The notes: generated from the sequence alone by a model not told the origin. Shown: positions 24,504 to 44,791, counted from the first letter of the stretch. The stretch: 64,000 bases of DNA from a virus (IMGVR_UViG_3300045974_000549:3499-67498), one strand, 5' to 3'. Numbers and translations are program-made.

Positions 24504-24541
24504 AGCGTTTCCCCCCTCTTCAGTCGTTCAATTGTCTTATG

Positions 24542-24859: not shown

Positions 24860-25703
24860 GTAGAGTCCTAATTTTAAGTTTTTTGCTTAACAATTCCCAA
24901 CGATCAGCGTATATGATAACATTATCTATTAACTCGGTAGGCATCCCTTTTGTTATCAATGCGTCAATGTTGAAAGATGTCGGTTTAACATCGGATAAAA
25001 ATTGAATAGCTTCAGACATCCCAATACCAATAATACCAGAAACATACCAAAACTGTGGTAAACTTAACCCTTCATCAAGTAGTTCTTCAAGTTTAGTTTC
25101 TAGTTTGTAGTATTTTTCACATTCAAGCGTACCATAAGTGTTAGTAAGTACATTATGACGGAAGTATGTAGATTTTTTACCAATTTGGGTAAAAAGAGGG
25201 ATAAAAGAAATCAAATTGTCGGCACCAAGTTTAGTACCGTAATTGTTTGGAAATGCGTTTGCCCATTCAGATATTTCTTCTGTGCTCATATTAGTGCAAA
25301 GTTCAATTAATCTATAAAGTGGAGTAGTAACTTTCCACTCACACATGGGATTTGAACATTTGAGACCAAAATGCTCTTGGTCCCCTATCTTTTTGCTTGA
25401 TCTTACATAGTTACTACCACAAGCAAGACAGTCATATGGGAATGAAACGTCTTCCTTTGTACTATTAGTGATTTTAAGTTTTGATTCATCGTTAATAGAC
25501 AAAGTAACTATAGAACCAATGCCAACTGGATGGTGTTCATAAATATCGGTTAGTCCCATTGGGAAAGAATTTAATTTTTCCCCACGAATTGTTACTTCAT
25601 CAAACAATAGGTCACTAACCAAGAATCCGTGTGGGTCTAAGTACCAGTTTATATTGTCAACTTTTATCGTAGCTGTTGTGTTATTTTCCTGCTGTGTTTC
25701 CAT
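24852..25703 (-). CDS. NAD-dependent DNA ligase C-terminal half (OB + C4 Zn finger + HhH), divergent
   Basis: OB-like N-terminus, 'FPYDCLACGS...KCSNPMC' and 'LPQFWYVSGIIGIG'; no KxDG domain. Confidence 0.55.
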   Translation of the reverse strand: METQQENNTTATIKVDNINWYLDPHGFLVSDLLFDEVTIRGEKLNSFPMGLTDIYEHHPVGIGSIVTLSINDESKLKITNSTKEDVSFPYDCLACGSNYVRSSKKIGDQEHFGLKCSNPMCEWKVTTPLYRLIELCTNMSTEEISEWANAFPNNYGTKLGADNLISFIPLFTQIGKKSTYFRHNVLTNTYGTLECEKYYKLETKLEELLDEGLSLPQFWYVSGIIGIGMSEAIQFLSDVKPTSFNIDALITKGMPTELIDNVIIYADRWELLSKKLKIRTLHA

Positions 25704-26304
25704 TTACAAAATTTTCAATCTCCATAGCTATTTGATCGATAGTTTTACCACCGACCTGAATTTGTGTTACTACTTCGTTTTCACTAAACGCGCACCTTTT
25801 TTTGTTGACAAGTGACCTGTAAATTTCCGTGTACTCAACCGATAATTCTGCCCAGTTAATTTGGCTTTCAAAAACATCATTATCAGCGATATCAAGTCTG
25901 TTATCTGCATTCAAAAAGATAATTTTAACATCATATTTATGAGTGATGTTGGCCTTATACACACTGGAAAGAATGTTTTCAAGTAATGCCATTTCATATG
26001 GTTCAATTCCGGTCCGTTTACCATAAACTAGACCAGAAATATAACTTCTATCCATTACTAAACTGCGTTCCCCATCAAATAAGGTAAAAGCATCAACAGT
26101 GTGGGATATCCCGATCAAAAGTTGACGCTCTAGTGCCGAATATATTGGGTTCATTTTAGCTTCGTTGCGGATAAAACTTACTAGATTATCCTTAGAAGGC
26201 TGAATAATTAGTTCTGCCTCTAATTTATTGGCTAATAGTTTTGACTGGGTAGATTTACCCGTTCCGTCGCTACCTTCAATTATGACAAGTTTCTGTTTTT
26301 TCAT
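25681..26304 (-). CDS. Thymidylate-kinase-family dNMP kinase
   Basis: 'IIEGSDGTGKSTQ' P-loop, 'MDRSYISGLVY'. Confidence 0.88.
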   Translation of the reverse strand: MKKQKLVIIEGSDGTGKSTQSKLLANKLEAELIIQPSKDNLVSFIRNEAKMNPIYSALERQLLIGISHTVDAFTLFDGERSLVMDRSYISGLVYGKRTGIEPYEMALLENILSSVYKANITHKYDVKIIFLNADNRLDIADNDVFESQINWAELSVEYTEIYRSLVNKKRCAFSENEVVTQIQVGGKTIDQIAMEIENFVNGNTAGK

Positions 26305-26338
26305 TTATTATTCCTACCGGAAAACGTGGTTGTATGTT

Positions 26339-27559
26339 CTAGCGTATAATAGTGTCTTCTGTGCATGCCCCAGTGCCTAAGAAACGCACATCTACACCTT
26401 TTAGGTACTCATCCATCCACGCTTGGAATTTCGGAGTTATCTTTTCGGTGCTTCCTTCCATTTCAGCGTCAACATAATTACAGAAGTTAAGTGAAATGTG
26501 GGTATCGGTACCTGCCTCATTATACATCACACTTTCATCTAAATTCATTCTTGAGAATGTAGCTACGCGTCGTGGCAGTTTGGTCACTGATGTAATCTCA
26601 AAAATTGGGTCTTTGGCTCCGGAAATCTTAGTCAAAGTTTCCCAATCAAGTTCTTTTTGATCAGGGTACCATTTACCAGAATTTCCTTCGTAAATAGTGT
26701 GCGGAGCACCATTTTGTACTTCTGCCCATGTAAGATGTCTTCCATCTTCGGTAGAAATGTACTTATTTGAGTTGATTCTAATTGGATATGTTCTAAAGTT
26801 GATGATTGTATCCCCTGCATATTTGATTGGCAGGAACATATCAGAAAATCCTTGAGCTACGTTCACATTTCTATAAGTAACATATGGCCAGTGATAAGAA
26901 TGTTGGTTGGAAAGTTGAAATCCCTGTGCAATTTCAAGGAGACCTGCTTGCCCTTTATTTAACCTGCTCATGATTTCCACTGGTACATCACACACCATGT
27001 CTTTGATTTGTTCACAGTCTCTAGCAATTTTCACTGATGGCCTTCTTAAAATACGACGAGCAGCACATGAACCAACACCATGATTAGTAGATCCAAATTT
27101 TGATGTTCCTTCGTGTCTTTTTTCAATAAGTTGTCCATCAAACCCTAAAGTGCCACGTTCAAAGCCTTGATCAAGTTCTACATCCAGAATAGGCACCACT
27201 GGGGAAATTCCTATTTTACTTCTTGGAATTCCGTTTTCTTCCATTTCTCGTAACAACGCTGGAAGTTCGATCATAGCACCAGGTCCAAGGTAAATCTTCT
27301 CGAACTTCTCGTGGTTGTAAGCACAAGAATTGAGTGTTTGATAAAACCATTGTCTTCCATCATGAAGTCTTACCCAATGACCAGCTTGTGGGGCAAAAGT
27401 GTTACAAGCAAACTGCCAATTATCAGCATTTGCAGTAATAAACGAACCAATTTTTCCTTTACCAGAACTTCCGGCTCCACCGTCAAGAAGAGTTGTTAAT
27501 TTGCCTGGTTTAAATACGAAGTTTGTGTTAGTGGGCATATTTTTTTCCTTTGTAGCCAT
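26339..27559 (-). CDS. purZ: PurZ-type adenylosuccinate synthetase homologue (2-amino-deoxyadenylosuccinate synthase candidate)
   Basis: 'DGGAGSSGKG' (Ser at the PurA Asp13 position), 'QAGH', 'GST', 'EIAQGFQLS', 'PIRI', 'SG.WYPDQKELDWE', 'TSVTKLPRRV', 'LNFCNY'. Confidence 0.78.
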   Translation of the reverse strand: MATKEKNMPTNTNFVFKPGKLTTLLDGGAGSSGKGKIGSFITANADNWQFACNTFAPQAGHWVRLHDGRQWFYQTLNSCAYNHEKFEKIYLGPGAMIELPALLREMEENGIPRSKIGISPVVPILDVELDQGFERGTLGFDGQLIEKRHEGTSKFGSTNHGVGSCAARRILRRPSVKIARDCEQIKDMVCDVPVEIMSRLNKGQAGLLEIAQGFQLSNQHSYHWPYVTYRNVNVAQGFSDMFLPIKYAGDTIINFRTYPIRINSNKYISTEDGRHLTWAEVQNGAPHTIYEGNSGKWYPDQKELDWETLTKISGAKDPIFEITSVTKLPRRVATFSRMNLDESVMYNEAGTDTHISLNFCNYVDAEMEGSTEKITPKFQAWMDEYLKGVDVRFLGTGACTEDTIIR

Positions 27560-28139
27560 AGCAGCTAAAATGATGTTTAAGTTCGTCCATTGCTTTTTTG
27601 ACAGTCACAGGCGGTATGCCCAGAAACTTGCCAAGGGTGTTTGGTGGAATACTATCGAATTGTTGATACATTCGAACCTCTTCCTTCAAAACTTCCCATT
27701 TTTCTAACGTAGCATCTGATGGATTAAATAATTCCCTGAAAAAATGTTGGATTCTTGGGTTCACAGTTTCGTAGTAAGCCTCAAGAATTCTTACAATGTC
27801 TTTATGTTCAAGGTTATTGTAGGAATTTAAAAATTTGTTTCCTGCTTTGTGCATCATTGAGTCTGCAAAGTCGTTGAAACTGATTTCACCAATTTCTACC
27901 ATGCAGTTAATGTTTTCTCTCGTTTTATTTTTTCTAAATATGTCGTTCACATGATTTTTCAGAACGACGAAAGCGAGAGCGCAAACTTCGTCCTCCGAGA
28001 CCGCCTCAAGTGTAGGCATCACTTCAGTGACTTTTAACCAAAGTTCTTGGTGTAGATCATCTTTATCGATTTTGTTTTGGTATCTAAAATGTTTGATTAC
28101 ATTTTCTATCGTTGTGACATAGTGACAGTAGTGCTTCAT
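27528..28139 (-). CDS. Phage RNA polymerase sigma factor (ECF-like regions 2 and 4)
   Basis: 'DDLHQELWLK', 'KNHVNDIFRK' and C-terminal HTH 'LGKFLGIPPVTVKKAM'. Confidence 0.7.
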   Translation of the reverse strand: MKHYCHYVTTIENVIKHFRYQNKIDKDDLHQELWLKVTEVMPTLEAVSEDEVCALAFVVLKNHVNDIFRKNKTRENINCMVEIGEISFNDFADSMMHKAGNKFLNSYNNLEHKDIVRILEAYYETVNPRIQHFFRELFNPSDATLEKWEVLKEEVRMYQQFDSIPPNTLGKFLGIPPVTVKKAMDELKHHFSCYGYKGKKYAH

Positions 28140-28202
28140 TGACTGTTCCCCCTCCAGTTTCCGTTATGACAATTCTAATTTTTCAGTTTGCTGTTAGGCA
28201 AG

Positions 28203-28232
28203 ATACTAACACTGGCCGGAAGGGTTTGTCAA
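28203..28232 (-). promoter_or_regulatory. sigma70-type promoter for the sigma-purZ-kinase operon
   Basis: Minus strand TTGACA-18nt-TAGTAT with a TG extension. Confidence 0.6.
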
Positions 28233-31226
28233 TTACTGAGTGAATGAACATCGAACTTGCCACTCCACATTATCTTTAAAAAAGACATCTTCTTTATAAG
28301 AAGTTGGGTCAATAGGTTTCTCTCCAAGAATGTCATAACTCACCTTGTAAGCGGGTGATGCCTGTGCCACAGTTTTAACAAAGTCCTTTTTTGTTGCTGT
28401 AGTCGTAAATACTAGTTTGTCAGATGAAAGTTCTTCTATGTGGCAAGACATTGCTCCACCCCACGAAGTACCAAACTCCACATCAAGATGAAGTGGGCAA
28501 GTAACCCAAGGATATTTCTCTGGAATTACATCTTCTCCATACTTCTTTAAAAGTTGAATTGCCTGAAATAATTCCCCTGGGTAAACATCGTATTCCATGG
28601 AGTCATGCACTGTAGCAAGCAAAATTGAATTAAGAGATCTCCCCTTCATGTCGTTCCATATTTCAACAATTTGGTTTCGCACTAATTCACTTGCTGGAGA
28701 CTGAACGCGATAGTTAACCGCAAGTCGTTTAGTTTCAGCAATGTCCGATTCTCTTTTTGAAAATGCGTTTGGCAAGTTAATTCTTCTACCAAGTACAGTT
28801 TCAACAAATCCGGTTTTAAGTGTGATATCCTCTTGTTCTTTTTTCCATTTAATAAGACGAGGCACTTTTGCATAAAAAGTATTCATCAAACGTTTAGCCT
28901 CTTCTACTGGAATTCCAAGGTCAGACGCTAAATTATATTCAGTTTTACCGTATAAAATCGCAAAGTTAACTGTTTTACCAACAGAACGTTGTTGCTTTGT
29001 AATTTTTTCAGGTGGGACACCATAAAGAATTGATGCAGTTGACGTATGGGCATCGATCCCGTTTTTGAAATTTTCAATCATTGATTTTTCATTAGAAAGT
29101 GCGGCTACAATACGAAGTTCAAGCTGCGAAAAATCGGCAGCAAGTATCAATCCTCCATTTTTGTGCCAACGGGATGCTACAAGCCTTTTAATATCACATC
29201 CATTTGGCATTGAGTGAAACGGAGACGACATCCTTCCGGTAATAGTACCGTTGATGTTAAACTTCGTGTAATACATGTCGTCTTTCATGCTATCAGGAAA
29301 ACTTTGTATATAATCTTTAAGAAGTTTTGATACCCGCTTGTAATCATGAATTTTTTGTACGTAAACTTTTGCCTCTTCCCAAAGTGGTACTTTTTCTTTG
29401 AATCCATCGTCTGCTTTATATTTGTCCATCATGTGGCCAACTAAAACTTCGTTCAGAAGATACGATCTTGCGTCTTTACTAAGAGAGTCCGCACCTTTAT
29501 CAGTGTGAAAATCTGGGTTAGATGGTAGTCCGTAATATTTTTTACCATAAGCAACTTCTGACAATTTTTCAGCATTGTTAAAGTTAAATGCTTTTTCTTT
29601 TAATTTTTCCCTAGATAGTGGTGTTTTCTTTTTATTATTTATTTCTTCTAAGGGGGCAAGTTCTTTTGCCATGAACTTTTTTACTGTATTTAAGTCTTCT
29701 ATTTGTCCTCTTTTTTCTTTTAGATAATTTGTATAGTTAGTCTCAAGGAAATTGTAAGTGGACGGTAAAAAATAAATGCCTTTAAGTTCAGGTTCAATAA
29801 TAGGTACTACTGCTTTGGTTACTTGTCTTGCCGCCTCTAGTGTGTCTTTTGGACAAACATTTTCATCTTCGAATTTTTCTTCAAGTTTTTGATTGTACCA
29901 AACGTCCAAACAAGCGTATTTGCCTAAAAGACCTGTTGGGATTTGGCCATAATGTCTGTCTTTGGTTAATCTAAACAGTTTAAGATAGTGGTCGATTTCT
30001 ATATCCCAATCGTCATTAACGTTAAAGTGTTTGCGTGATAACCCTTTAAGAGAGTTATCAATACCACCACCAGTACCTTGTAATTGTACAGACACGTTTT
30101 GGGTGTCCATTTGTATTTTCACTTTTGACAAATCACAATAACTTTTGTACGCGCACCATAAAAGATCGTATTTAAGATTATGGCCGGAAATAGGAATTGT
30201 GTTTAAAACTTCGGATATAAGAATTTTTAATTTGGCTCTATCTTGGTCGGTTACATCCCATGGGATTTCAACTAAATCAGAAAGCAAATTAGGAACACTC
30301 ATCAAATCACAATAAACACCACCAGGCTTACAGTCTTTTTGAAATGGCAGTTTAGAGTTGGATTTTTTGGCTTTAGCAGCATTAAGTGGAAATTTTAGTT
30401 TGTAATCTTCAAATTCTTCGGGGTTCAAGTCTTTCCAGTGGTGAATTTCGTTAGTCACATAAAATGGTATTGCTCTTGCTTTATCCATTCTTTTGTGTGT
30501 TATTGACACCATTACAATTTCACCACCTTGTATAGGTTCAAGTGAAATTGAATTCTCGATATCGAATATAATATGGTCAATTTTGTTATGTTTGTACTGG
30601 GAAAGTAAAGTAGTTAAAAATTTAGTAGCACTTTTTGGGTCAAGGATTTCGTATTTATCTTCAGTATTTTCGGAAGGGGCATCAATAGAAGTGAAAGCTT
30701 TAGTTATATAAGTGTCAATATCCCTTAAATGTTGCGGGTGACGATCAGCAAGTGATGGGTCAAGATTAGGAATTACTTTAACAGTTAAGTCTTTGAATTT
30801 GACATCTCTTGCAGTACCATACTCTCTAGTTATTTTTACGTCATGATCACCAGACAGATTTTTATATACAAAACCACCAAAAGTCATCACTGTAGCTGTT
30901 GGGTGTTCAGCAAGTTCGTCTCTCAAGTGTTTCAAACAATGAGCAATAGCATCTCTAGGAGGCTCTTTAAATCCAGAACGAGATACATTGTTTTCAAAAG
31001 TAGGGCATTTCATTAAATAAGTAAGTTTGTATCTACCTTCAAAACGAGAAAGAAGAGGCTTTATAGTAGCAGCTTTTACACCACCAAAAAATTTGCCTTC
31101 ATCGTCTGCTTTTTCTGGATAAGGGAATACCATGATTACTTCTGGTGATTCTGCCCCTTGTGGTTTTACTTTACCGCGTACACAATGCCTATAATGACCA
31201 CACTCAGCACAAATAAGTTCATTCAT
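28233..31226 (-). CDS. Family A DNA polymerase with N-terminal UDG family-4-like domain and 3'-5' exonuclease (SPO1-type architecture)
   Basis: N-terminal 'CAECG..C...KCP...HC'; exonuclease 'FDIE','GHNLKYD','YACLDV'; polymerase 'ADFSQLELR','R..GKTVNFAILYG','VHDS'. Confidence 0.95.
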   Translation of the reverse strand: MNELICAECGHYRHCVRGKVKPQGAESPEVIMVFPYPEKADDEGKFFGGVKAATIKPLLSRFEGRYKLTYLMKCPTFENNVSRSGFKEPPRDAIAHCLKHLRDELAEHPTATVMTFGGFVYKNLSGDHDVKITREYGTARDVKFKDLTVKVIPNLDPSLADRHPQHLRDIDTYITKAFTSIDAPSENTEDKYEILDPKSATKFLTTLLSQYKHNKIDHIIFDIENSISLEPIQGGEIVMVSITHKRMDKARAIPFYVTNEIHHWKDLNPEEFEDYKLKFPLNAAKAKKSNSKLPFQKDCKPGGVYCDLMSVPNLLSDLVEIPWDVTDQDRAKLKILISEVLNTIPISGHNLKYDLLWCAYKSYCDLSKVKIQMDTQNVSVQLQGTGGGIDNSLKGLSRKHFNVNDDWDIEIDHYLKLFRLTKDRHYGQIPTGLLGKYACLDVWYNQKLEEKFEDENVCPKDTLEAARQVTKAVVPIIEPELKGIYFLPSTYNFLETNYTNYLKEKRGQIEDLNTVKKFMAKELAPLEEINNKKKTPLSREKLKEKAFNFNNAEKLSEVAYGKKYYGLPSNPDFHTDKGADSLSKDARSYLLNEVLVGHMMDKYKADDGFKEKVPLWEEAKVYVQKIHDYKRVSKLLKDYIQSFPDSMKDDMYYTKFNINGTITGRMSSPFHSMPNGCDIKRLVASRWHKNGGLILAADFSQLELRIVAALSNEKSMIENFKNGIDAHTSTASILYGVPPEKITKQQRSVGKTVNFAILYGKTEYNLASDLGIPVEEAKRLMNTFYAKVPRLIKWKKEQEDITLKTGFVETVLGRRINLPNAFSKRESDIAETKRLAVNYRVQSPASELVRNQIVEIWNDMKGRSLNSILLATVHDSMEYDVYPGELFQAIQLLKKYGEDVIPEKYPWVTCPLHLDVEFGTSWGGAMSCHIEELSSDKLVFTTTATKKDFVKTVAQASPAYKVSYDILGEKPIDPTSYKEDVFFKDNVEWQVRCSFTQ

Positions 31227-32531
31227 TTATCTAGCCTCTTTTACCCAACAACGTTCTAACTGTTTATTAATTTTTACTTTAACTTTACTATCACCACGTC
31301 TTGTAATATCTAGATAAAGGATACCATCATTAGATTCTGGACCAAAATTAAGTGATGAAATACTCCAACAACGATGCGCTTTTCTAGCTGAATGGGCAAG
31401 TTTGTCATGGGTAATTAAATTTCCACCAGCGGCCATTTCCCAAGCGTCCCTTTGCGGCTGTGCTGCAGTAAGTACCGGACATTCAAAATAACTGGCAAGT
31501 TGTACTAAATCAGAATAAACGTTACCAGCGTCATTGTACATATCATCTTTAGACTTACCAGTTGTTGGCAAAAGGCAATCATCATAATCTATGATAATCA
31601 AACTTGGTGTTACACCAGTTTTTGATCTAACTCTTGAAATCCAAGATCTTATGGTAAACGTGTTGATTGAACATTCAGGCCAAAAGTTAATGTAAAGGTT
31701 TGGTTTATACTCGTCGTATCTTTTAAGTTTGTGTTTAAAAGCTTCGGGTGTCATTGATGTAATTTGATCAGTGGACATTCCTGACATATTCATCGCATAT
31801 TTCATAGCCACATCTTCTCTTGAAATCTCAAGCGTGATATGAAACACCGCTTTACCTTCTTTAAGATTGGCTACACCAACGTTAACCATTGTAGACGATT
31901 TACCAACTTTAGGTGGAGCAAGTATCACATGCACTTCACCTGGAGCCATACCACCTTTAAGAGCCGCATCCCATGTCGGAAACCCAGATTTTACCAATTT
32001 ATCCGGATCATACTTTTTAAGATATCTAGATGGCATATCAGCAAGATCGGCGTAGGTTATTTCTTCTGAATTTCCAGCACCAATAGAAACTGCACGATCA
32101 ACCATATGTAACACTTGTTCATAAGCATCGTCGCGTTCTATAATCTCTACAGCTTTAAAAAGAGCGTTTTTAAGTTCTTGTCTCCTTACAAAAGCCACTA
32201 AGTTGTCTATATAAAATTGCTCAGACGGGATATGTGTGTTCATTATTAGTTTAGCCTCTTTTTTGATGACATCAGCTGATTCATCGGCTATACCAAAATT
32301 GAGAGCATGTTTATTAATTTCCACTGATAAAGTGTTCAAGTCCATTTCTTTTTCGTAACCAAACACATACTCTTTAATCAAAGAGCAAAGAGTTTTCAGT
32401 GCATGGTTTTCAAAATACTCATCAAGAAGTAATGTGCCATAATTGGCAGAAAATTGCACATTAGATGCTAAAATCTTTAAAATGGACCGTTGGAAATTTA
32501 TAGTAAATATACTATTTGTCTCTTCGCTCAT
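31227..32531 (-). CDS. Replicative DnaB/gp41-like helicase
   Basis: 'APPKVGKS', 'ITLEIS', 'IIIDY', 'TAAQPQR'. Confidence 0.9.
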   Translation of the reverse strand: MSEETNSIFTINFQRSILKILASNVQFSANYGTLLLDEYFENHALKTLCSLIKEYVFGYEKEMDLNTLSVEINKHALNFGIADESADVIKKEAKLIMNTHIPSEQFYIDNLVAFVRRQELKNALFKAVEIIERDDAYEQVLHMVDRAVSIGAGNSEEITYADLADMPSRYLKKYDPDKLVKSGFPTWDAALKGGMAPGEVHVILAPPKVGKSSTMVNVGVANLKEGKAVFHITLEISREDVAMKYAMNMSGMSTDQITSMTPEAFKHKLKRYDEYKPNLYINFWPECSINTFTIRSWISRVRSKTGVTPSLIIIDYDDCLLPTTGKSKDDMYNDAGNVYSDLVQLASYFECPVLTAAQPQRDAWEMAAGGNLITHDKLAHSARKAHRCWSISSLNFGPESNDGILYLDITRRGDSKVKVKINKQLERCWVKEAR

Positions 32532-32634
32532 CTTGCTGTTTTTCCTTTTTTTCCTTATTAACGTTCATCTCATGGTTAATTAAAACCAAAATTAGCCTTG
32601 CGTATAATAATTCTGCTTCTCTTCGTGTTAACAT
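32512..32634 (-). CDS. Small hypothetical protein (40 aa)
   Basis: TAAGGAG RBS; MLTRREAELLYARL...; fills the gap between thyX and the helicase. Confidence 0.5.
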   Translation of the reverse strand: MLTRREAELLYARLILVLINHEMNVNKEKKEKQQDERRDK

Positions 32635-32643
32635 AGGTACTCC

Positions 32644-33294
32644 TTATAACGTAGTAGAGGCCAAATTAGATAACTTTTCCGACTCAAATAGGGTAGGCAT
32701 TTTCTCGTGGAAACCGTCAAGCATACTTTGAGCGAGTTGTCTCATTTGCGGATGAGCTGCTGGTGCCGCACGAAGATTAAACACATGTTTCCATTCTCTG
32801 ATGTTAGCTGTCATAACAATTTCAGTCTTAAGCGAATTAGGTAAAACCGCTCTTGCCTGTTGGGGAGTCCACCCCATTTTAAGCAGAGTGAAATATCCAT
32901 TCTCTGTATAAAGCATTTGTGTTGCCCATTCTTCGTATTGTTTGGTACTTTCCTGTCCGGCTAACCATGTGGGTTCTATCACAGTAATTTCCCCACCAAA
33001 CTTATCTTTTGAATAATTACAGTAACGAGTAGACTCTTGTGAATAAGAGGCTAAACGATGACGAACTAATTCATGTGTAACTCCGCGATCAGTAATGATT
33101 CTAACTGTAATCGACGCGTGTTCAAGTACCGACGCATGGTTTTTGCTCATAATACTTTTTACAAAAGTGCATGGATTATCACCAGCTTTGTCTTCGCTTT
33201 TATAACAAGTACGACCTGCAAGTTCAAGCTTTTTTAGAATTTTATTCTCGTCAATTTCATCCTCAAACTGCCATGACTGCTTAATTATTTTCAT
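32644..33294 (-). CDS. thyX: Flavin-dependent thymidylate synthase
   Basis: 'HASVLEH', 'THELVRHRLASYSQESTRY', 'ARAVLPN', 'NIREW'. Confidence 0.96.
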   Translation of the reverse strand: MKIIKQSWQFEDEIDENKILKKLELAGRTCYKSEDKAGDNPCTFVKSIMSKNHASVLEHASITVRIITDRGVTHELVRHRLASYSQESTRYCNYSKDKFGGEITVIEPTWLAGQESTKQYEEWATQMLYTENGYFTLLKMGWTPQQARAVLPNSLKTEIVMTANIREWKHVFNLRAAPAAHPQMRQLAQSMLDGFHEKMPTLFESEKLSNLASTTL

Positions 33295-33640
33295 TTTCTA
33301 CCTCTTTATATTCTATCATATCTTCGTATACCCAAAGATATTTGGTTTTTTTGTCTATAAAAACAAGATTGCGTTTCTTTTCCCTATCAGCCATTATGTC
33401 ATCTACTTCAAATTCAGCTCCGGAAAGAAGTAAATCAAAAGTGCTATCAGAACAAATACCAATATCTAACAAATCCTGTTTGGTAACTTCCGGTTTAATC
33501 CTGAACTTCTTTCCTAATTTTTCCAATCCCAATCTCCCTACAAAGTGATTTATATTTTTGCGACCAATACCCAGAATAACAATAAACATAAGCATCTGGG
33601 GAATACTCATAATGCCTAGCTTTAAGATAACTTTCCGCAT
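33281..33640 (-). CDS. Hypothetical protein (true start probably near 33530)
   Basis: 5' part overlaps the neighbouring ORF; GGGAG precedes an in-frame TTG. Confidence 0.45.
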   Translation of the reverse strand: MRKVILKLGIMSIPQMLMFIVILGIGRKNINHFVGRLGLEKLGKKFRIKPEVTKQDLLDIGICSDSTFDLLLSGAEFEVDDIMADREKKRNLVFIDKKTKYLWVYEDMIEYKEVENENN

Positions 33641-33863
33641 CCTCTCTACAAAAGAATGGTCCGATTTGTGATGAATGGAGAGACCTTAACGCTTGGTTGA
33701 GGTTTTCTTCTGCATTGAATTCCCTAGTTATACCGTCGTCGTCGGTATATGATTCTAAACATCTTCTCAACGGACCAGGATCAATCACCATCCAATAAGG
33801 TGACTCTGTACCCTCATTGTCAGTTTTTTGTAATGTAGTTATTATATCTATCATTGATTTCAT
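33495..33863 (-). CDS. Hypothetical phage protein
   Basis: AGGAG RBS; 'GPFFCREDAE.YL....Y.Y...AYVY'. Confidence 0.6.
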   Translation of the reverse strand: MKSMIDIITTLQKTDNEGTESPYWMVIDPGPLRRCLESYTDDDGITREFNAEENLNQALRSLHSSQIGPFFCREDAESYLKARHYEYSPDAYVYCYSGYWSQKYKSLCREIGIGKIRKEVQD

Positions 33864-33870
33864 AACGCTC

Positions 33871-34782
33871 CTAAAGTTTTATTCTAACTTTTTCGTCAAA
33901 ACATTTTTTAAATTCAACAGGGTCCATATCATCGGGGTCTTTATCTAAAGCTGGTCTAACCTCGTAAACTTCGAATCCGGCTTTTATTAAAAGCCTATTG
34001 AGACGATTTCTTGATTGTTGGGTAACATCGTCTGTACCATCTAAACACACATATACCTTATGGGCAGACATTCTTAATTTGGCTAACTGGTAATCAGAAA
34101 TAGTTTTACCTAGAATGGATACTGATGGTATCCCTGTTGCTCGTTCAGCAGCTATAGCAGACACAATTCCCTCACAAATTAAGCATTCACCCTGGACTTT
34201 ATCTATACCATATACTACTTGGTCTTTGTTGCCCACGGAGTTTTTATAACGAAGGGATGAGCCGTTATAAGATCGACCTACAAGAAACACAACCTTACCA
34301 TCTTCAAAAAACGGGAAAATTATCCTTCCTGACCAAGTACGATCAAGGTTTCCAGTCTTTGGGTCTGTATAACTCAGTCCAACATGAATTTGATACTTGT
34401 TAATTTCGTCATCAGTGAATTTTCGTTTTTTAATATAATCATAGGCTATTGGTGTAGTATCTTTAGTCATTGGTACTGATACCAAGTTAAGATCTATGGT
34501 AGGATTTCTTTTTCTTTTGTCCAGTGATTTTAATTTATCTTTAATGAAATTTAGGTCTGGAGAAGTTTGGTTAACAGAACCTGATCCACCAATATCAAAG
34601 TATCTTTTAAGGGAAGATACTGCTCCTTTGGTGCCACACCTAAAACACTGGAAGAGACCCTTTTTGAAGTTTGCATATAACTTGTACTTCTCATCAACTT
34701 CACCAACTTTGGATTCACAAAATGGGCAACAAAAGCGTAGTTCGTCCGGCCTATTGGTCGGTTTAGAATCTTTTAGACTCAT
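33871..34782 (-). CDS. DNA primase (Zn finger + TOPRIM)
   Basis: 'CPFC...CFRC', 'RIIFPF', 'ICEG', 'LDG.D', 'KDPDD'. Confidence 0.92.
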   Translation of the reverse strand: MSLKDSKPTNRPDELRFCCPFCESKVGEVDEKYKLYANFKKGLFQCFRCGTKGAVSSLKRYFDIGGSGSVNQTSPDLNFIKDKLKSLDKRKRNPTIDLNLVSVPMTKDTTPIAYDYIKKRKFTDDEINKYQIHVGLSYTDPKTGNLDRTWSGRIIFPFFEDGKVVFLVGRSYNGSSLRYKNSVGNKDQVVYGIDKVQGECLICEGIVSAIAAERATGIPSVSILGKTISDYQLAKLRMSAHKVYVCLDGTDDVTQQSRNRLNRLLIKAGFEVYEVRPALDKDPDDMDPVEFKKCFDEKVRIKL

Positions 34783-34964
34783 TGTATTTTAATGAAGTGA
34801 TTTACATGCTGCTTGTCGTATGTCCAAATTTCTGATTTTGCGTATAATTTGATTACTGCACGAGTTTTCATCATTTTAACCACAACCCCATTACCATACC
34901 AAGTGTCCGTAATTTTCATTCCCCGACGTAACTTCTTAAAAACGGACTTAGTGGTTAATCGCAT
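34779..34964 (-). CDS. Small SH3-like hypothetical protein
   Basis: 'GMKI.D.WYG.GVV' pattern; overlaps the primase start. Confidence 0.5.
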   Translation of the reverse strand: MRLTTKSVFKKLRRGMKITDTWYGNGVVVKMMKTRAVIKLYAKSEIWTYDKQHVNHFIKIQ

Positions 34965-34968
34965 AATT

Positions 34969-35175
34969 TTACGGCTTAACCACTATAAATTTGGCTTCGC
35001 AATGTTCACATTCAGTTTCACAAATCTCTTTAGCACCACCATCAGCAGCTACCCCACTCGCGTAGAAATCTCCATCCGATATACCATCAGTGTTAGATTC
35101 ATTACATTTTGGACAGTCAAAATAAAACATTGCGTATGCGTCTACTTCTTCCATATTGTCTCCTAGTATTTCCAA
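34969..35175 (-). CDS. Small Zn-ribbon protein
   Basis: CPKC...CEHC. Confidence 0.55.
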   Translation of the reverse strand: MEILGDNMEEVDAYAMFYFDCPKCNESNTDGISDGDFYASGVAADGGAKEICETECEHCEAKFIVVKP

Positions 35176-35408
35176 TATCCATCTTCTCTCAAAACTTTAG
35201 GGTCCACAAAACACATTCTTCTTTGTTGGTAACAAGACAAAAGTGGTTTTGCTTTTGTCTTATCATATGGGGGTGGTTCGTCTACATGAATGGCTAACTT
35301 GTCAACCACTTTTGCCTCAGAAAAATTCCAACATTCTTTGGCTCCACCAAGTCCATGGTTATAGTCATTATTATAGCATCCACTACACATAGTTTTTTCT
35401 TTTTTCAT
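35163..35408 (-). CDS. Small Cys-containing hypothetical protein
   Basis: 'CSGCYNNDYN......CW'; ATGA-coupled to the TauE gene. Confidence 0.6.
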   Translation of the reverse strand: MKKEKTMCSGCYNNDYNHGLGGAKECWNFSEAKVVDKLAIHVDEPPPYDKTKAKPLLSCYQQRRMCFVDPKVLREDGYWKY

Positions 35409-36235
35409 ATAATATGTAACCCTTTAAGTAAAGTTAAAATACCCATGAAAATCGTTACCACTGCTATGATAATTTTAACTTTTTTCTCATCAAATCTCTT
35501 AATGAAACCAGTAGCCAAAGGAACACTAGTAAGAGACCCGATAAGCATTGCTACAAGGAGTTTAGTGTCAAGAGTAGAGCCACGAGCGATATAAAGAGCA
35601 ATCCCAAAACCACCAGTGATACCTTTTGCAAAAGCTGTAATAGCTGCGGCATTCTTACCTTCCACTCCACTAATAACTTGCCCAGAAGTAAGAAGGGCAC
35701 CAAATCCACCACCAGTAAGACTCTTGTTAAAAGCCGCTACTATAGACAAACCAAGCATTTTTTTGTTGCCATATTCTCTAACTTTGTTAAGCATCCAAAA
35801 AATGAAAATACCACATAAAATGGTAATTGCTCCGGTAGCAGCTATTAAGTTATCCTTCTGCATTTGCATAGCCGTAGGTACACCAACAAATACACCTAAG
35901 ATACATCCTATAGTTATCATGGCAGTAGCGGTTTTGTTTCTGCTAGTAAAAAAGTCAATATTCTTGTCTTCTTGGTGAAAATGTGAAGCTGTGAAACCAG
36001 TGATTAATTCTGAAATAAGAATGTTCTGTACTATCATCACCGGATTAAAATTTAACCATAAAAGCGTGTGGGCAGACAATGTACCAAAACCCATACCAGT
36101 AGCACCATTAACAAATTCGAAACAAAAAGCTATTAGAGTAACAAGTAGAAATTTCCACTCGAACCCATAACCAGAAGTTAAAATCACTGCCACACCTATT
36201 GACAGTACCATAAAAATATAAACTATTCTATTCAT
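35405..36235 (-). CDS. TauE/SafE (TSUP) family sulfur-anion transporter
   Basis: About 8-9 TM segments; 'NGATGMGFG', 'LTGGGFGALL', 'LIGSL..VPLA'. Confidence 0.8.
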   Translation of the reverse strand: MNRIVYIFMVLSIGVAVILTSGYGFEWKFLLVTLIAFCFEFVNGATGMGFGTLSAHTLLWLNFNPVMIVQNILISELITGFTASHFHQEDKNIDFFTSRNKTATAMITIGCILGVFVGVPTAMQMQKDNLIAATGAITILCGIFIFWMLNKVREYGNKKMLGLSIVAAFNKSLTGGGFGALLTSGQVISGVEGKNAAAITAFAKGITGGFGIALYIARGSTLDTKLLVAMLIGSLTSVPLATGFIKRFDEKKVKIIIAVVTIFMGILTLLKGLHII

Positions 36236-37200
36236 AAATCACCCACATTAAGACTTCTTATAAAAGAGTCTTTTTCATCCTTCCATTCACCGTTTAAAAT
36301 TTCACTTATTTGATATTCTTTTTTGATATTGGTATTAATCAGACTGGTAGAATCAGTGCATGTTGATATAAACAACCCAGCCCTATTCATAGTATTTAAT
36401 ATTTTGGACATTTCTTTCCAATTTTTAACTACCCCAGTAGTAATATTACTAGTAGGGCAAACTTCAAAAATAGTTTCAGTGTAAGCCGCTTTACTCATTA
36501 ACATTGAGTAATTGTGAATTTGTATACCATGTCCTATTCTATTTGGTTTTAAATCGTCAAGTACCCAGTCAAGTTCGTTTTCTACTTTTATATGTTTTTC
36601 TTCACCAGCGTGTACAGTAGTTATTAACCCACGGTCTCTAGCCTCTTTGTACATTTGCACGTATCTTTTACCTATGTCGCCATTCCACCAATTAGTGCTA
36701 TAAGGACCAGCAATATCAATACCTTTAATCCCTTTGCCTGCATATTGCATAGCTTTCCTAAAAACTGCTTCATTGGCATCAGGTGTACAGTCCCTACCCA
36801 TGCAAAGGATAAGACCACCTTCAATTTTATAAACTGATTTTGCTCTTTCCATCCCAGCTCTAGCTCTAACAATAATAGAATCTAAGTCTATTGCTCCATT
36901 TTGTGATCTTTTAGTTGGATTCATTCTGAGTTCTAAATATGAACACCCAGACATATAAGCAGACACAAATGAATGGTAAACACATTTTTCTATAGCCATT
37001 GGATAAGACTGTGCTTTATCAATTGAATGAAGCACTTCAAGATACGACTCAAGAGACATCCCAGCTTTATTATTAAGAGTAACTGAATGTTTAAATTCCC
37101 AATAAGTTTTAGCTGGCATTTTATAGCCAGAATCTACTACTAATTCCCAAAGAACGTTAATTGGGGTGCTTGAACTTAGATGTAAATGAAGATCTTTCAA
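36232..37200 (-). CDS. Adenosine/AMP deaminase-family amidohydrolase
   Basis: 'DLHLHL', 'YLELR', 'GIDIAG', 'HAGE', 'RIGHG', 'EVCPTSN', 'CTD'. Confidence 0.9.
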   Translation of the reverse strand: MKDLHLHLSSSTPINVLWELVVDSGYKMPAKTYWEFKHSVTLNNKAGMSLESYLEVLHSIDKAQSYPMAIEKCVYHSFVSAYMSGCSYLELRMNPTKRSQNGAIDLDSIIVRARAGMERAKSVYKIEGGLILCMGRDCTPDANEAVFRKAMQYAGKGIKGIDIAGPYSTNWWNGDIGKRYVQMYKEARDRGLITTVHAGEEKHIKVENELDWVLDDLKPNRIGHGIQIHNYSMLMSKAAYTETIFEVCPTSNITTGVVKNWKEMSKILNTMNRAGLFISTCTDSTSLINTNIKKEYQISEILNGEWKDEKDSFIRSLNVGDL

Positions 37201-37218
37201 ATTAACTCCATAATAAAG

Positions 37219-37243
37219 ATGACCCCCGAATTATGGGGGTCAT
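37219..37243 (-). terminator. Perfect 9-bp hairpin downstream of the porin gene
   Basis: atgaccccc-7nt-gggggtcat, followed on the minus strand by CTTTATT. Confidence 0.55.
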
Positions 37244-37264
37244 AGTGCCTTGTATAAGTTTTAG

Positions 37265-38113
37265 TTAAAACGTTGCTGCGATACGAGCAATCATACCATC
37301 ACTGTTATTCATATGGGAAATAAGTGCTGCGATGTTGATTTGTTTGTTGATTGCATATGTGGGACCAAAATTCAGTGATTCTGTGTGGGTAAGTTTCCAT
37401 GTAGCATCACCAGCTAGGTACTGAATATAAACACCAGTTTTATGTTCATCAGTATAACCACCAGTTAGTGCGTAGCTGAAACTTTTATCAGCATCTTTTG
37501 GCACTTCTTGAGAAAGTTCAATACCAGCAGTATAATTGGCAAATTTACCAAATCCTGATAAATCATAAGTCCAGGTTTTGAATGCAGGGCTATAACGAGC
37601 AAGAACCGCTACATCAGCTTGTGTAAAAGAGTGGGTAAGAAGTAATGAATACGCACTCATGCTATCACCCTTAACTTCATCACTAACTTGAACTGAATAA
37701 TCTACATATTGAGAAACACCTGAATAAGACAATATCATATCTCTATTAACTAAGATACTTTGAGCAAAAGTAGGTGTTAACCAGTTTGAGTGTAGTTTTG
37801 ATTCTGCAAACGCTGCATAATGGTCTTGTTGGAAACCAACACTCAAAGAATCACCAGCAACAAAAGCATTTCCTTTAAGATAGGCATTGAACATGCTAGG
37901 CGATTGTACCAGCTTCGGGTTTTGTACCATATTACCAGCAAGATTGAGTTGCCAATCACCTTCTAATTGTTGACTAAGACCAAGAACTGCGCGGTCTACG
38001 CCAGAATTATCTTGACTAGAACCTGCAAAAAGCTGTCCATAAAACACTGGAGCTGCTGCTTGTGCAAAGGCATTACTGCCTAGCAACATCATAATAACTA
38101 ATAACGACTTCAT
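37265..38113 (-). CDS. Outer-membrane beta-barrel (porin-like) protein
   Basis: Strong AAGGAGG RBS, signal peptide ending AFA, alternating beta strands, C-terminal Phe. Confidence 0.7.
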   Translation of the reverse strand: MKSLLVIMMLLGSNAFAQAAAPVFYGQLFAGSSQDNSGVDRAVLGLSQQLEGDWQLNLAGNMVQNPKLVQSPSMFNAYLKGNAFVAGDSLSVGFQQDHYAAFAESKLHSNWLTPTFAQSILVNRDMILSYSGVSQYVDYSVQVSDEVKGDSMSAYSLLLTHSFTQADVAVLARYSPAFKTWTYDLSGFGKFANYTAGIELSQEVPKDADKSFSYALTGGYTDEHKTGVYIQYLAGDATWKLTHTESLNFGPTYAINKQINIAALISHMNNSDGMIARIAATF

Positions 38114-38135
38114 ATATCCTCCTTAGGATAGGTTG

Positions 38136-39281
38136 TTATGGACTTTCATCCATTATTAACTTGTTGAAATGATCTATGATAAATTTTTTGTCATAAACCA
38201 TTTTGCCGTGATTGCCCGATTGAATGTTCTTATAGTCGTCCTTGCCTTCAACTTTGGCCGAATTTAAATTACGGCTTGACCAAGCTTCCGGTGGGATTTC
38301 TTCAGAAACAAAACTTAAATTTGTTATAATATCGGTCATTTTGTCAGTTAGATACAAGGACAAATTCCATGTCTCGGACCAACTAAGTCTCTCATTTGAT
38401 GAATGTGCGATATCACGTTCAAGCCACGTAAGTATTGATTCGGTATCATTAAAAGAATTGAACCTTACCTTACGAGCAAGACCCGAAATTTGTTCAAGTG
38501 TAATTGGGTTCATTTTGTGGGGCATACTACTTGAACCACGTTGTTTGTCACTGAACTGTTCATTATATTGTCCAAGGAAAGCATACAAACGAAGATCATT
38601 AGCTATTTTCTCATAAGTGGTGACCAAAATAGAAATTTCGTTGGTTATTCTGGAAAATACATCTCTAGAGATGATTTGAGTGGTGATTGTGTTGTTTGGT
38701 CTAAATGTCCATTTGCGTTCATCTTCTGGAGTCCAAAATGAATAAGACCCAGTAGGACCCGAAAGTTTTGGACAAAGCTGCATAGTCAACCAGTCCAAGT
38801 GTTCAAGTGATCTTCTAATGTTAGTATAATATCCCATTAAACGCCAACCCCAAGTGATAGGTTCGGCTATTTTTCCATGAGTACGACCATTAACTATACA
38901 ATCTTTATGTTTTTTTGAAGAATCGTTGATTACATCAAGTAGCGTTCTACCATGCTTACTCAAAAGTTTATGAGATTCTTTAAATATTTCTACCAGCGCA
39001 GAATCCACAACATCAGATGAAGTTACACCAAGGTGCACTTTGTTACAACCAGATTTTACTCGAAGAAGTTCGGTCAACGATGCTATATCATGCTTAAATT
39101 CTTTTTCAAGTTTTAGGTGTTCTTCTCTGTTATACATAGAAGATTGTACATTTTTGAGTTCATTGTCACTAATATATCCTTTGTGATGAGCAAGTCTCAT
39201 CAAATTTTTGGATACTTCCCAACACTTAATATATCTATAAGCATCAGTCCATAAATCGGACATTTCAGTTTGGTATCTCAA
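38136..39281 (-). CDS. purB: Adenylosuccinate lyase (shortened C-terminus)
   Basis: 'KHDI', 'VHLGVTSSDVVD', 'GRTHG..AEP', 'GSSSMPHKMNP..LE', 'ERDIAHSS.ER'. Confidence 0.93.
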   Translation of the reverse strand: MRYQTEMSDLWTDAYRYIKCWEVSKNLMRLAHHKGYISDNELKNVQSSMYNREEHLKLEKEFKHDIASLTELLRVKSGCNKVHLGVTSSDVVDSALVEIFKESHKLLSKHGRTLLDVINDSSKKHKDCIVNGRTHGKIAEPITWGWRLMGYYTNIRRSLEHLDWLTMQLCPKLSGPTGSYSFWTPEDERKWTFRPNNTITTQIISRDVFSRITNEISILVTTYEKIANDLRLYAFLGQYNEQFSDKQRGSSSMPHKMNPITLEQISGLARKVRFNSFNDTESILTWLERDIAHSSNERLSWSETWNLSLYLTDKMTDIITNLSFVSEEIPPEAWSSRNLNSAKVEGKDDYKNIQSGNHGKMVYDKKFIIDHFNKLIMDESP

Positions 39282-41971: not shown

Positions 41972-42478
41972 TTAAAACCAAAAATCTTTAAACTTATTAT
42001 ATTTACCATTAGGGCTAACCCTAATATTTGAATAACCTAAAATTTCTTTAATTGGTAACATATACCAGTTATCATCAGTTTTATTATGACAAGCCAAAAA
42101 GTCAAATCCACCAACTCTACCCTTAGAAAATTTAAAATTTCCTTCTTTCGAAGATTTGACTTGCACACGATGCAAACTTTCCCCAGTATCCACAATAACA
42201 TCATACTGACAACTATCGCCGTACGGTAAAGCTATATGATAACCTTTTGCGGAACATTTAGCAGCAAACAACAATTCAGATGGTATGCCGTTACGTCTGG
42301 CATCTGTACCTAAATTTGGTTGAGATTTAGCTCTATTAGTTATTCTATTGGTTACAGCTTCAGTGTGGGCTTCGGAACATTTTGGACATAAAGTACGTTT
42401 GTATAAATACTTATATGTACCATCATTTCTTTTGATTTTAGCTGGCCATGAATTACCACAATTACGACAAATTTTCAT
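41972..42478 (-). CDS. PD-(D/E)XK endonuclease, I-Ssp6803I-like homing endonuclease family, with N-terminal Zn finger
   Basis: 'G..SE..F......GY.IALPYGD..QYDVIVD....LHRVQVKS'; CRNC/CPKC. Confidence 0.75.
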   Translation of the reverse strand: MKICRNCGNSWPAKIKRNDGTYKYLYKRTLCPKCSEAHTEAVTNRITNRAKSQPNLGTDARRNGIPSELLFAAKCSAKGYHIALPYGDSCQYDVIVDTGESLHRVQVKSSKEGNFKFSKGRVGGFDFLACHNKTDDNWYMLPIKEILGYSNIRVSPNGKYNKFKDFWF

Positions 42479-42912
42479 TAAAAATTACCTTCAGCACAAT
42501 GCAAACACACTAATCCTTGTTCTCTCCACATATCAACTACTTGTTTTCTATCATCTATACAAAATTCCACATCATACAATGGTTTGATTTTATTAAGGTA
42601 AATTTCTTTTTTAATGATAAAATCAGTCCTAAAATCACCAGATTTTCTCATATAAAGTTCATTGAAATAAATACCATTATCTTGTAACCATTTAACAGTT
42701 GTTTCTTTATGATCATCAGGTCTTCCTGATACCAAAAGTATACAGTGATGTGAAACAAACCTTTGTATTATGTTTTTGCACCATTCATTTGGTTTATCTT
42801 CTGACATTTTACCATAAAAAGATTTCCAGTCCTTTTTCTCCCCAGTCATAAAATGTTGTCTATGACTGGAGTCAGATAAAGTACCGTCAATGTCTACTAT
42901 TATAGCCTTCAC
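42478..42912 (-). CDS. HAD phosphatase (PseT 3'-phosphatase-like)
   Basis: 'VDIDGTL', 'SGRP', 'LYMR...DFR.D..IK', 'IDDR.QVVDMWR'. Confidence 0.88.
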   Translation of the reverse strand: MKAIIVDIDGTLSDSSHRQHFMTGEKKDWKSFYGKMSEDKPNEWCKNIIQRFVSHHCILLVSGRPDDHKETTVKWLQDNGIYFNELYMRKSGDFRTDFIIKKEIYLNKIKPLYDVEFCIDDRKQVVDMWREQGLVCLHCAEGNF

Positions 42913-44466: not shown

Positions 44467-44791
44467 GTAATTCTCCTGGTGTGGGTTCAGTTAATCTTCT
44501 AACAAAAATGTTTGCAGCGTCTTTTACAGATGCTCCTTCTTTATAACAAGCAAGCATAACTTTTAATTCTCTTAAAATGAATTCCAATTCGTATTCATTA
44601 ACATGCAAAATACCCTGGTTTTGACCTTCTAGTGTATTGACACGTGCGAGTTTGGTGTTTCCATCAACTACTATAACCGTATCGTTGGTAATAAAATTAG
44701 TGAAACATTCACTAAAATTAGGATATGCATTAACCACTGTCTCTATAGAAACGGTAGGCATAATAGCAATAAACTTCGGAAGAGTGTTCAT
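44444..44791 (-). CDS. Hypothetical protein
   Basis: 115 aa, coupled to both neighbours. Confidence 0.55.
   Translation of the reverse strand: MNTLPKFIAIMPTVSIETVVNAYPNFSECFTNFITNDTVIVVDGNTKLARVNTLEGQNQGILHVNEYELEFILRELKVMLACYKEGASVKDAANIFVRRLTEPTPGELHVKEFQI

Follow-up and report, generated by a model that had tools for sequence, protein, structure and literature searches.

A distinct subfamily of PurZ-like synthetases in large phages and a predicted variant of the 2-aminoadenine DNA pathway

Introduction

PurZ, an N6-succino-2-amino-2'-deoxyadenylate synthase, takes dGMP, aspartate and either ATP or dATP as its substrates. Here we analyze a purZ-like gene and its surroundings in a 64,000-nucleotide stretch of viral DNA (the window), which comprises bases 3499-67498 of the linear 67,498-bp IMG/VR viral contig IMGVR_UViG_3300045974_000549; positions are counted from the window's first base. 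The contig is 56% complete as judged by CheckV, and its DNA occurs in two DNA runs, both pond metagenomes available as contigs, with no RNA run listed. An earlier note on this stretch had proposed a self-contained pathway for placing 2-aminoadenine (Z) in the DNA of a large myophage, built from a PurZ, a phage-borne PurB and an adjacent deoxynucleoside monophosphate (dNMP) kinase, with no DatZ or MazZ in view.

Published work, in the parts available, has the products of PurZ handled by the host's PurB and GMP kinase. In the accessible text of PMC12884076, the carriers of PurZ or of the related PurZ0 are counted as seven phage groups, and dATP is removed by DatZ together with MazZ or DUF550 in PurZ phages and by DutZ, DmtZ and DUF5664 in PurZ0 phages. 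Most phages listed with either gene have genomes of ~38-83 kb.

For the window we computed protein families, residue patterns, fold, tree placement, the catalytic motifs of the lyase and gene content. From these we infer the substrate and product of the synthetase, the role of the kinase, the presence of Z in the DNA and, above all, the mechanism by which adenine would be excluded.

Results

Organization of the locus

Structural genes occupy the left third of the contig, on the plus strand, where PHROG families for the baseplate hub, the baseplate wedge and tail fibres were matched, and a minus-strand block extending from 22.5 kb to 52.9 kb holds genes for replication and nucleotide metabolism. 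No tRNA genes were found. The description of this virus as a large myophage draws support from the baseplate hub and wedge matches and from a distant relative, the myovirus MaF61; no sheath gene was identified.

The purZ-like gene lies within the minus-strand block at 26339..27559. Immediately downstream, on the same strand, is a gene for a dNMP kinase of the thymidylate-kinase family (25681..26304), and farther along is a class II (adenosylcobalamin) ribonucleotide reductase (RNR) of the RTPR-like type (22494..24503, minus strand; TIGR02505 E 7.3e-69, PF02867 E 2e-8), as the earlier note had it. Genes for a lyase, a deaminase homologue and a dUTPase homologue, described below, occupy the same block.

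A PurZ-family synthetase with a Ser-type, ATP-type active site

The product of 26339..27559 (P0001) is a protein of 406 amino acids (aa) that matches PF00709 (E 6.5e-13), is of the Ser type and has an ATP-type NFxNY pocket; it contains the motifs GSSGKG, TSVTKLPRR and LNFCNY. Residues were compared in a MAFFT alignment that joined this protein to six references: E. coli PurA, three PurZ proteins (phiVC8, S-2L and Acinetobacter phage DMU1) and two PurZ0 proteins (Wayne and Archimedes). All three substitutions that the earlier note had pointed out were seen there: S31 occupies the position of PurA D13 (E. coli numbering) and of phiVC8 S14, L328 lies opposite R303, and LNFCNY stands in place of KLD, with F359 and N361 opposite K331 and D333 of the PurA guanine motif TKLD. 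R303, K331 and D333, like H41 and Q224, have functional roles in E. coli PurA. The TKLPRR loop is identical to that of S-2L PurZ, and T323, F359 and Y362 correspond to phiVC8 T262, F295 and Y298, respectively. Of the five phiVC8 residues compared, four are matched (by S31, T323, F359 and Y362), the exception being F12. The roles of S14, F12, T262, F295 and Y298 are those given in the available text of bioRxiv 10.1101/2025.10.22.683976, which assigns F295 and Y298 to the pocket for the adenine of ATP and F12 and T262 to the 2-amino pocket.

These features extend to the protein's relatives. Across 25 aligned relatives there is no variation at S31, T323-R331 or F359, nor at the catalytic residues K34, H61 and Q212, while conservation at Y362 is at least 90%. 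The equivalents of PurA K16, H41 and Q224 are conserved. The part of PMC12884076 that was accessible reports a conservation of 99% for Asp13 within the clade of E. coli-type PurA, and Ser at this position in 100% of 147 phage PurZ-group sequences. At the guanine site, the PurZ0 of Wayne (LTMLDQ) and Archimedes (LSMADQ) retain an Asp (T/S-M-x-D), whereas the LNFCNY of the window's protein lacks it. The protein also carries a subfamily-specific insertion of ~28 residues, at roughly 264-291, near the active-site strands. The earlier suggestion that the gene bears the hallmarks of PurZ was borne out: this is a Ser-type, ATP-pocket protein of the PurZ family, and neither a canonical PurA nor a GTP-type PurZ0.

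Family scores, fold and phylogeny

The PurA model TIGR00184 gave the synthetase 51.4 bits against a cut-off of 395.6, and its scores fell far under all PurA equivalog cut-offs. Its best NCBIfam model is that of PurZ (NF038379), and its PHROG match is to 2-aminooxy adenylosuccinate synthetase. When solved structures in the Protein Data Bank (PDB) were ranked by sequence, phiVC8 PurZ came first (7e-24), followed by S-2L PurZ (1e-19), Pyrococcus horikoshii PurA (9e-13) and other PurA proteins (6e-5 or weaker). An AlphaFold2 model built on an alignment of 25 sequences (pLDDT, the model's confidence score, 90.9) returned a similar order in Foldseek: phiVC8 PurZ (1.5e-22), S-2L PurZ (2.6e-22), P. 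horikoshii PurA (4.5e-20) and PurZ0 (7vf6, 1.4e-17), with TM scores by target of 0.81-0.83 to the PurZ structures.

Two trees were computed, both rooted on Asp-type PurA. A quick IQ-TREE analysis used 90 rows, taking every second row of the canonical-length hits, leaving out intein-bearing and fragmentary rows, and setting the root at E. coli PurA plus the Asp-type PurA of a 735-kb uncultured phage. In this tree, the window's clade comprised 41 rows (SH-aLRT 95-97) and formed a set with canonical PurZ (SH-aLRT 98); a more careful tree of 28 rows gave that set a support of 99/95. PurZ0 was basal to the window's clade plus canonical PurZ in both. We assign the window's protein to the PurZ family in the broad sense, as a separate subfamily that lies below the curated model's cut-off, and the predicted enzyme most probably works like PurZ.

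The subfamily in large phages

A word-indexed database search found 614 relatives belonging to the subfamily. Among the 120 listed, identities were 52-75%, lengths ~390-475 aa and contigs up to 193 kb. When 1.84 billion representatives were scanned in full with HMMER, 1280 passed E ≤0.001; in 148 of the 150 best representatives, which were checked for the active-site pattern (P0124-P0271), G-S-x-G-K-G was present in 108 and G-D in none, while the pattern was unmatched in the remaining 40, which are fragments or variants. In IMG/VR, a single-protein query found no close relatives, and an alignment query found 20 loci on contigs of up to 247 kb. By BLAST (E 1e-5), the window and these IMG/VR loci have no neighbourhood in common: apart from the purZ-like gene, ThyX and primase matched weakly and a deaminase matched once.

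Several homologues are much longer than the rest, at 730-824 aa (P0125, P0130, P0134, P0136, P0203, P0265 and others, and L021:3509-5890), and contain intein-like inserts of ~320-400 aa. The inserts begin with Cys and end with His-Asn followed by Cys, Ser or Thr; they occupy two or more sites inside the conserved motifs GST|xHG and PYx|TSR. Inteins that interrupt conserved motifs are usual for essential phage genes of nucleotide metabolism. Among 185,579 species genomes, the subfamily patterns matched once, in a 27%-identical relative (L070:1794-2819); the 22-kb contig that carries it belongs to a metagenome-assembled genome of an uncultured Saccharibacteria.

Cultured-phage records yielded 64 matches. 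Among those listed, the purZ-like gene of MaF61 (a Flavobacterium phage with a 167.8-kb myovirus genome, PQ858689) was 34.6% identical to the window's, with each of the other 39 below 31%; it is the one cultured member of the subfamily found, and the sole match among those listed that falls outside canonical PurZ. A term search of the paper describing MaF61 returned no mention of adenylosuccinate or adenosuccinate; 'modified' occurs once, in connection with a DNA-extraction method.

To compare partner genes, we examined 22 records with a purZ-like gene, most of which are fragments. A PurB homologue is present in five and an adenosine-deaminase homologue in five; each of the four IMG/VR records with a completeness of 46% or more has the deaminase homologue. 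Six records have a dUTPase-family match (two of the six dCTP-deaminase-like), and seven (G002, G011, G020, G001, G016, G008 and G005; loci L059-L065) have a match to NDT, the family of DmtZ; four of these matches exceed the cut-off, and each lies ~1-3 kb from the purZ-like gene. MazG was found in MaF61 and G003, and HD_3 in MaF61 only. The BLAST cluster that contains the NDT-like gene covers 12 loci, and the NDT-like genes fall within a syntenic block common to 13-14 loci, whose other genes are without a Pfam name; when nine ORFs of this block (eight from L003 and one from L005) were compared to Pfam, the sole named product was a SbcC/Rad50-like ATPase. In the 247-kb relative G001, the dUTPase domain forms the C-terminal third of a 389-aa ORF (L043:724-1890), the N-terminal 250 residues of which have a weak, sub-threshold Pfam match to the terminase GpA ATPase (E 9e-4).

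A phage-borne lyase and a candidate kinase

The window encodes its own PurB-like adenylosuccinate lyase, as had been claimed: a short form of 381 aa at 38136..39281 (minus strand; Lyase_1 E 8.9e-34, TIGR00928 E 3.3e-68). Aligned with E. coli PurB and other phage PurB-like proteins, it keeps its catalytic motifs intact, namely TSSD, RTHG (with the catalytic His) and GSSSMPHKMNP (the SSxMPxKxN signature loop), and it is 35% identical to the homologue of Galactica and 32% identical to that of Archimedes. Its TIGR00928 score of 230.5 bits is under the cut-off of 326; the match spans profile positions 4-349 of 436, so that most of the C-terminal region is missing, and the PurB-like protein of Archimedes (365 aa) is short in the same part.

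The accompanying statement that known Z phages rely on the host's PurB agrees with the papers, but PurB-like proteins are annotated in the Gordonia PurZ0 phages Ghobes, Archimedes, Frizzle and Sapo. In the Streptomyces phages Galactica and Hiyaa, GenBank also lists PurB-like lyases, next to genes annotated as PurA-like. That a phage carries a PurB is thus, taken alone, no novelty. In the literature searched, we found no discussion of these annotated genes (one paper that names Ghobes speaks of host PurB) and nothing that joins PurZ and PurB with myoviruses.

The adjacent kinase was also confirmed in position and family, with weak matches: PF02223 at E 3.4e-7, phrog_761 at E 5.6e-14, TIGR00041 at 37.7 bits against a cut-off of 83, and thymidylate kinases in the PDB at E 1e-5 and weaker. 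It is a candidate kinase for the Z-containing deoxynucleoside monophosphate (dZMP).

A deaminase homologue and putative uptake genes

The adenosine-deaminase homologue named in the earlier note is present at 36232..37200 (minus strand; PF00962 E 4.5e-40). It scores 148.9 bits with TIGR01430 (cut-off 216.6) and matches adenosine deaminases in the PDB at E 7e-17. The motifs HxH, HAGE and GHG are in place, with TDS where the homologues of G001 and G002 and the best solved adenosine deaminase have TDD. Such genes are nearly absent from the cultured-phage collection, in which eight records matched, and we suspect that several of these, being multi-contig or unannotated assemblies, are contaminated. 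Conversely, when IMG/VR was scanned for the deaminase first, five loci were returned, three of them on contigs with a purZ-like gene, and the two other contigs (60% and 18% complete) had no PF00709 match; a deaminase-purZ link is suggested by these numbers, which come from search patterns derived from purZ-linked deaminases. We found no literature that ties a phage adenosine deaminase to 2-aminoadenine. Its part in the proposed pathway would be one of those considered in the Discussion.

Four co-directional genes follow one another here: purB, a gene for a porin-like outer-membrane beta-barrel (37265..38113, minus strand), the deaminase homologue, and a TauE/SafE-family membrane permease (35405..36235, minus strand; PF01925 E 5.7e-23), the start of which overlaps the deaminase stop by 4 nt. 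The barrel protein has a signal peptide and a C-terminal Phe; it has no Pfam, NCBIfam or PHROG match, and its Atlas model resembles the Porin_4 and Porin_O_P clusters (TM 0.75-0.82). Considered as an adenine phosphoribosyltransferase (APRT), this ORF was rejected because it is a signal-peptide porin-like barrel. A phage-encoded protein of this kind points to a Gram-negative host, and the barrel and permease that flank the deaminase gene may constitute an uptake module. An APRT-like gene does exist, as the earlier note said, but it lies outside the 25681-39281 region to which that note applied, at 56671..57282 on the plus strand (PF00156 E 1.4e-8; NF002636 112.5 bits, cut-off 125).

Candidates for the exclusion of dATP

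The claim that the window lacks HD and MazG genes extends to the whole 67,498-bp contig, in which no match to HD, MazG, DUF550, HD_3, NDT or PF18909 was found; the PF18909 blank is weak, the search having matched in no control genome. Searches by phmmer with the DatZ of S-2L and phiVC8 and the MazZ of S-2L (E ≤10), covering the window and loci L001-L031, returned only the queries themselves and each other. With the contig 56% complete, the lack of DatZ and MazZ holds for the contig and not for the genome, and absence from the phage is not established.

A dUTPase homologue of 152 aa, missed in the earlier note, is encoded at 44788..45246 (minus strand; PF00692 E 2.8e-21). Dut-like enzymes clear dATP and dGTP in PurZ0 phages, the task of DatZ and MazZ elsewhere, according to the available text of PMC12884076. 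The window's protein is 38.6% identical to the Dut domain of Wayne NDT-DutZ and 40.1% identical to Galactica gp67, while its identity to E. coli Dut is 30.8%; for DutZ-type proteins the range is 35-40%. Its sequence would suit an ordinary Dut as well as a dATP/dGTP diphosphatase of the DutZ type. Candidates for dATP exclusion are this protein, the homologue of adenosine deaminase, or a DatZ/MazZ pair encoded in the part of the genome that the contig lacks.

Other genes of the contig

A sigma-70/ECF-like protein (27528-28139, minus strand; TIGR02937 E 5.6e-6) is encoded directly upstream of purZ, with a 32-nt overlap with the annotated purZ start. Beyond it lies a family A DNA polymerase of 997 aa (28233..31226, minus strand; PF00476 E 3.1e-65), the N-terminal domain of which resembles uracil-DNA glycosylases (UDG), weakly matching both the UDG superfamily and the type-4 enzyme (NF040953 E 8.5e-5); its residues ~200-600 have no family match. 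A ThyX thymidylate synthase (32644..33294, minus strand) is also encoded (PF02511 E 3e-49; TIGR02170 149.4 bits, cut-off 87.9). A stand-alone HAD phosphatase of the PNKP type (42478..42912, minus strand; PF25109 E 4.6e-38, no NCBIfam match) might, speculatively, act on nucleotides.

Between the kinase and RNR genes, a 283-aa ORF (24852-25703, minus strand) is similar to an NAD-dependent DNA ligase in the OB/HhH half alone (0.93 for Atlas features, TM 0.52-0.59 for structure), with no adenylation domain seen; on this resemblance it was rejected as a hidden Z enzyme. The right arm of the contig groups, on the plus strand, a DnaJ homologue (58135-58938), a MoxR-type AAA ATPase (59473-60570), a DUF6744 protein (60601-61443) and a homologue of the histidine-kinase catalytic region (62078-62947).

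Discussion

A predicted variant of the Z-DNA pathway

We interpret the locus as a subfamily variant of the Z-DNA pathway: a PurZ-family enzyme from a distinct ~400-aa subfamily of large phages, with Z predicted in the virion DNA. We put the probability of this interpretation at roughly 60%, and the phage's DNA is probably modified with 2-aminoadenine. The class II RNR would supply deoxyribonucleotides, and PurZ would condense dGMP with aspartate. The phage's short PurB-like lyase would then release fumarate to give dZMP, which could be phosphorylated by the adjacent thymidylate-kinase-family enzyme or by the host's guanylate kinase, the host's nucleoside diphosphate kinase then making dZTP. 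The phage's family A polymerase would incorporate dZTP, producing virion DNA with 2-aminoadenine in place of some or all of its adenine. Such a pathway may be largely host-independent, as the earlier note suggested.

Several observations weigh against this interpretation. The synthetase scores 128.7 bits with the PurZ model, far under its cut-off of 300, and the archaeal-type PurA model NF003295 comes barely behind at 122.9. Ala29 occupies the position of phiVC8 F12, a position that is Ala or Phe across the subfamily. The phylogeny against PurA, PurZ and PurZ0 that had been suggested as a check put the protein on the PurZ side of the PurZ/PurZ0 split in both trees, but neither tree contains archaeal PurA, and in an approximately unbiased test (28 rows, LG+G4) the alternative that places the clade outside all other Ser-type rows was not rejected (difference in log-likelihood 25.4, p 0.081), the tested group having been defined after the tree was seen. 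By the NCBIfam models, the polymerase appears not to be a DpoZ, at 54.8 bits with NF038380 (DpoZ_1; cut-off 500) and 27.9 bits with NF038381 (cut-off 350). The dUTPase homologue exceeds the cut-off for ordinary Dut (NF001862, 120.4 bits against 103), and the contig-wide lack of HD, MazG, DUF550, HD_3, NDT and PF18909 matches is a further point. An adenosine deaminase could also deaminate diaminopurine nucleosides and thereby work against the synthesis of Z. Lastly, the available part of the metaGPA preprint has 17 adenylosuccinate-synthetase genes on contigs that were scored as unmodified, and three of these grouped apart from E. coli PurA.

Alternative explanations

The alternative that survives best, although we hold it to be distinctly the less likely, is that the Z cluster of this Z phage is an ordinary one: the unassembled part of the genome would encode a DatZ-like HD enzyme together with a pyrophosphatase of the MazZ/DUF550 kind, and PurB and the kinase would be extras. 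The 56% completeness of the contig leaves room for this, and the complete MaF61 genome has both an HD_3/YfbR-like match (339-aa ORF, E 3e-6) and a MazG match (197 aa, E 4e-5), the two lying far from its purZ-like gene; the 60%-complete G003 carries MazG as well. Conversely, in G001, at 91% completeness, neither HD_3 nor MazG matched, only HD_4 and a sub-threshold DUF550, and the DatZ and MazZ queries found nothing in the window or in loci L001-L031. Known Z phages have datZ and mazZ beside purZ, whereas other genes adjoin it here.

A bolder extension of the variant pathway, which we regard as rather improbable, would see a widespread, unrecognized lineage of large contractile-tailed phages (metagenomic members by the hundred, and MaF61 as the cultured one) whose Z genomes are made through their own PurZ subfamily and in which, for this phage and part of its relatives, the task of DatZ and MazZ has been replaced by a rerouting of the purine pool through the deaminase, the APRT-like enzyme and perhaps the porin and permease. 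The deaminase-family and APRT-like enzymes would drain adenine compounds into the IMP/GMP/dGMP pool that feeds PurZ, the porin and permease would perhaps serve uptake, and the phage's PurB and kinase would free this branch from the host.

A third specificity is less probable still. Here the enzyme would aminate some other 6-oxopurine nucleotide, such as the ribonucleotide GMP or a modified dGMP derivative, and its product would be other than dZ or not destined for DNA. The separate clade (SH-aLRT 95-97), with its own ~28-residue insertion near the active-site strands, would fit such a change, as would Ala at the F12 pocket position, the score under the curated PurZ cut-off and accessory genes unlike those of all described Z clusters. 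Set against this are the match to PurZ at five of six compared positions (S14, T262, F295, Y298 and the TKLPRR loop), the ranking of canonical PurZ as the closest structure by Foldseek, and the NDT-family neighbours in relatives, which fit the DmtZ/NDT association reported for Z phages in the published text available.

We consider it quite unlikely that the synthetase, lyase and deaminase form a phage purine nucleotide cycle, or interconvert IMP and AMP or dIMP and dAMP, to adjust host pools or make fumarate in a phage with canonical DNA: all three enzyme types are present in the window, the APRT-like, porin-like and permease genes fit purine scavenging, and no known Z-type dATP-removing enzyme was found in the contig, but the replacement of Asp13 (99% in the E. 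coli-type PurA clade, in the accessible text of PMC12884076) by a Ser that is invariant in 25 relatives, together with the loss of the guanine-binding K/D motif to the ATP-type F/N-Y of PurZ, argues against such a cycle, and with PurB, deaminase and synthetase found together in only two of the 22 records (G000 and G003), the trio is not a conserved unit.

Implications

If the subfamily makes dZMP, as the variant Z pathway predicts, Z genomes would also be a feature of large myophage-like viruses, in fresh water and in other habitats, and hundreds of phages would be added to the candidates for Z DNA. The Z pathway would then also run with a different set of accessory genes (an own PurB, a kinase, a deaminase and NDT-family genes), and the deaminase link would represent a new way of keeping adenine out of DNA. 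Because MaF61 is cultured, the question can be tested directly in the subfamily.

Comparison with known systems

Canonical PurA and PurB, which convert IMP to AMP, share with the window's pair the same two-step chemistry and the same folds; the synthetase differs from PurA in the changes Asp13 to Ser and Arg303 to Leu and in the loss of the K331/D333 guanine motif.

Arthrobacter and Gordonia phages with PurZ0 (Wayne, Ghobes and Archimedes) carry DutZ and DmtZ, and those of Gordonia carry a PurB-like lyase as well. Like them, the window has a short-form PurB-like lyase (381 aa versus 365 aa in Archimedes, at 32% identity) and a dUTPase-family gene, and its relatives have NDT-family genes near purZ. 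The two differ in the synthetase, PurZ0 retaining a guanine-type pocket with its Asp and branching outside the set formed by the window's clade and PurZ, and in their accessory genes: the contig has no NDT match, and its Dut is unfused and passes the ordinary Dut cut-off.

MaF61 likewise encodes an adenylosuccinate-lyase homologue, and its synthetase falls in the window's clade in both trees. It differs in having MazG and HD_3 matches and no deaminase or Dut match, and by BLAST its 31-kb purZ locus matches the genes of the window's 22494-41323 region in the purZ-like gene alone.

The closest comparison is with the PurZ of phiVC8, S-2L and Acinetobacter phages. The window's protein is 25-30% identical to these enzymes and ~40-60 residues longer, has the ~28-residue insertion and the Ala at F12, and falls under the NCBIfam cut-off. 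The window also has no adjacent DatZ or MazZ match and no DpoZ, and the subfamily occurs on contigs of up to ~190-250 kb, compared to ~40-66 kb for canonical-PurZ phages. Nevertheless, the two share the PurA fold, Ser at the Asp13 position, the equivalents of T262, F295 and Y298, and a TKLPRR loop identical to that of S-2L; canonical PurZ provides the best sequence and fold matches to the window's synthetase and lies with it on the same side of the PurZ/PurZ0 split.

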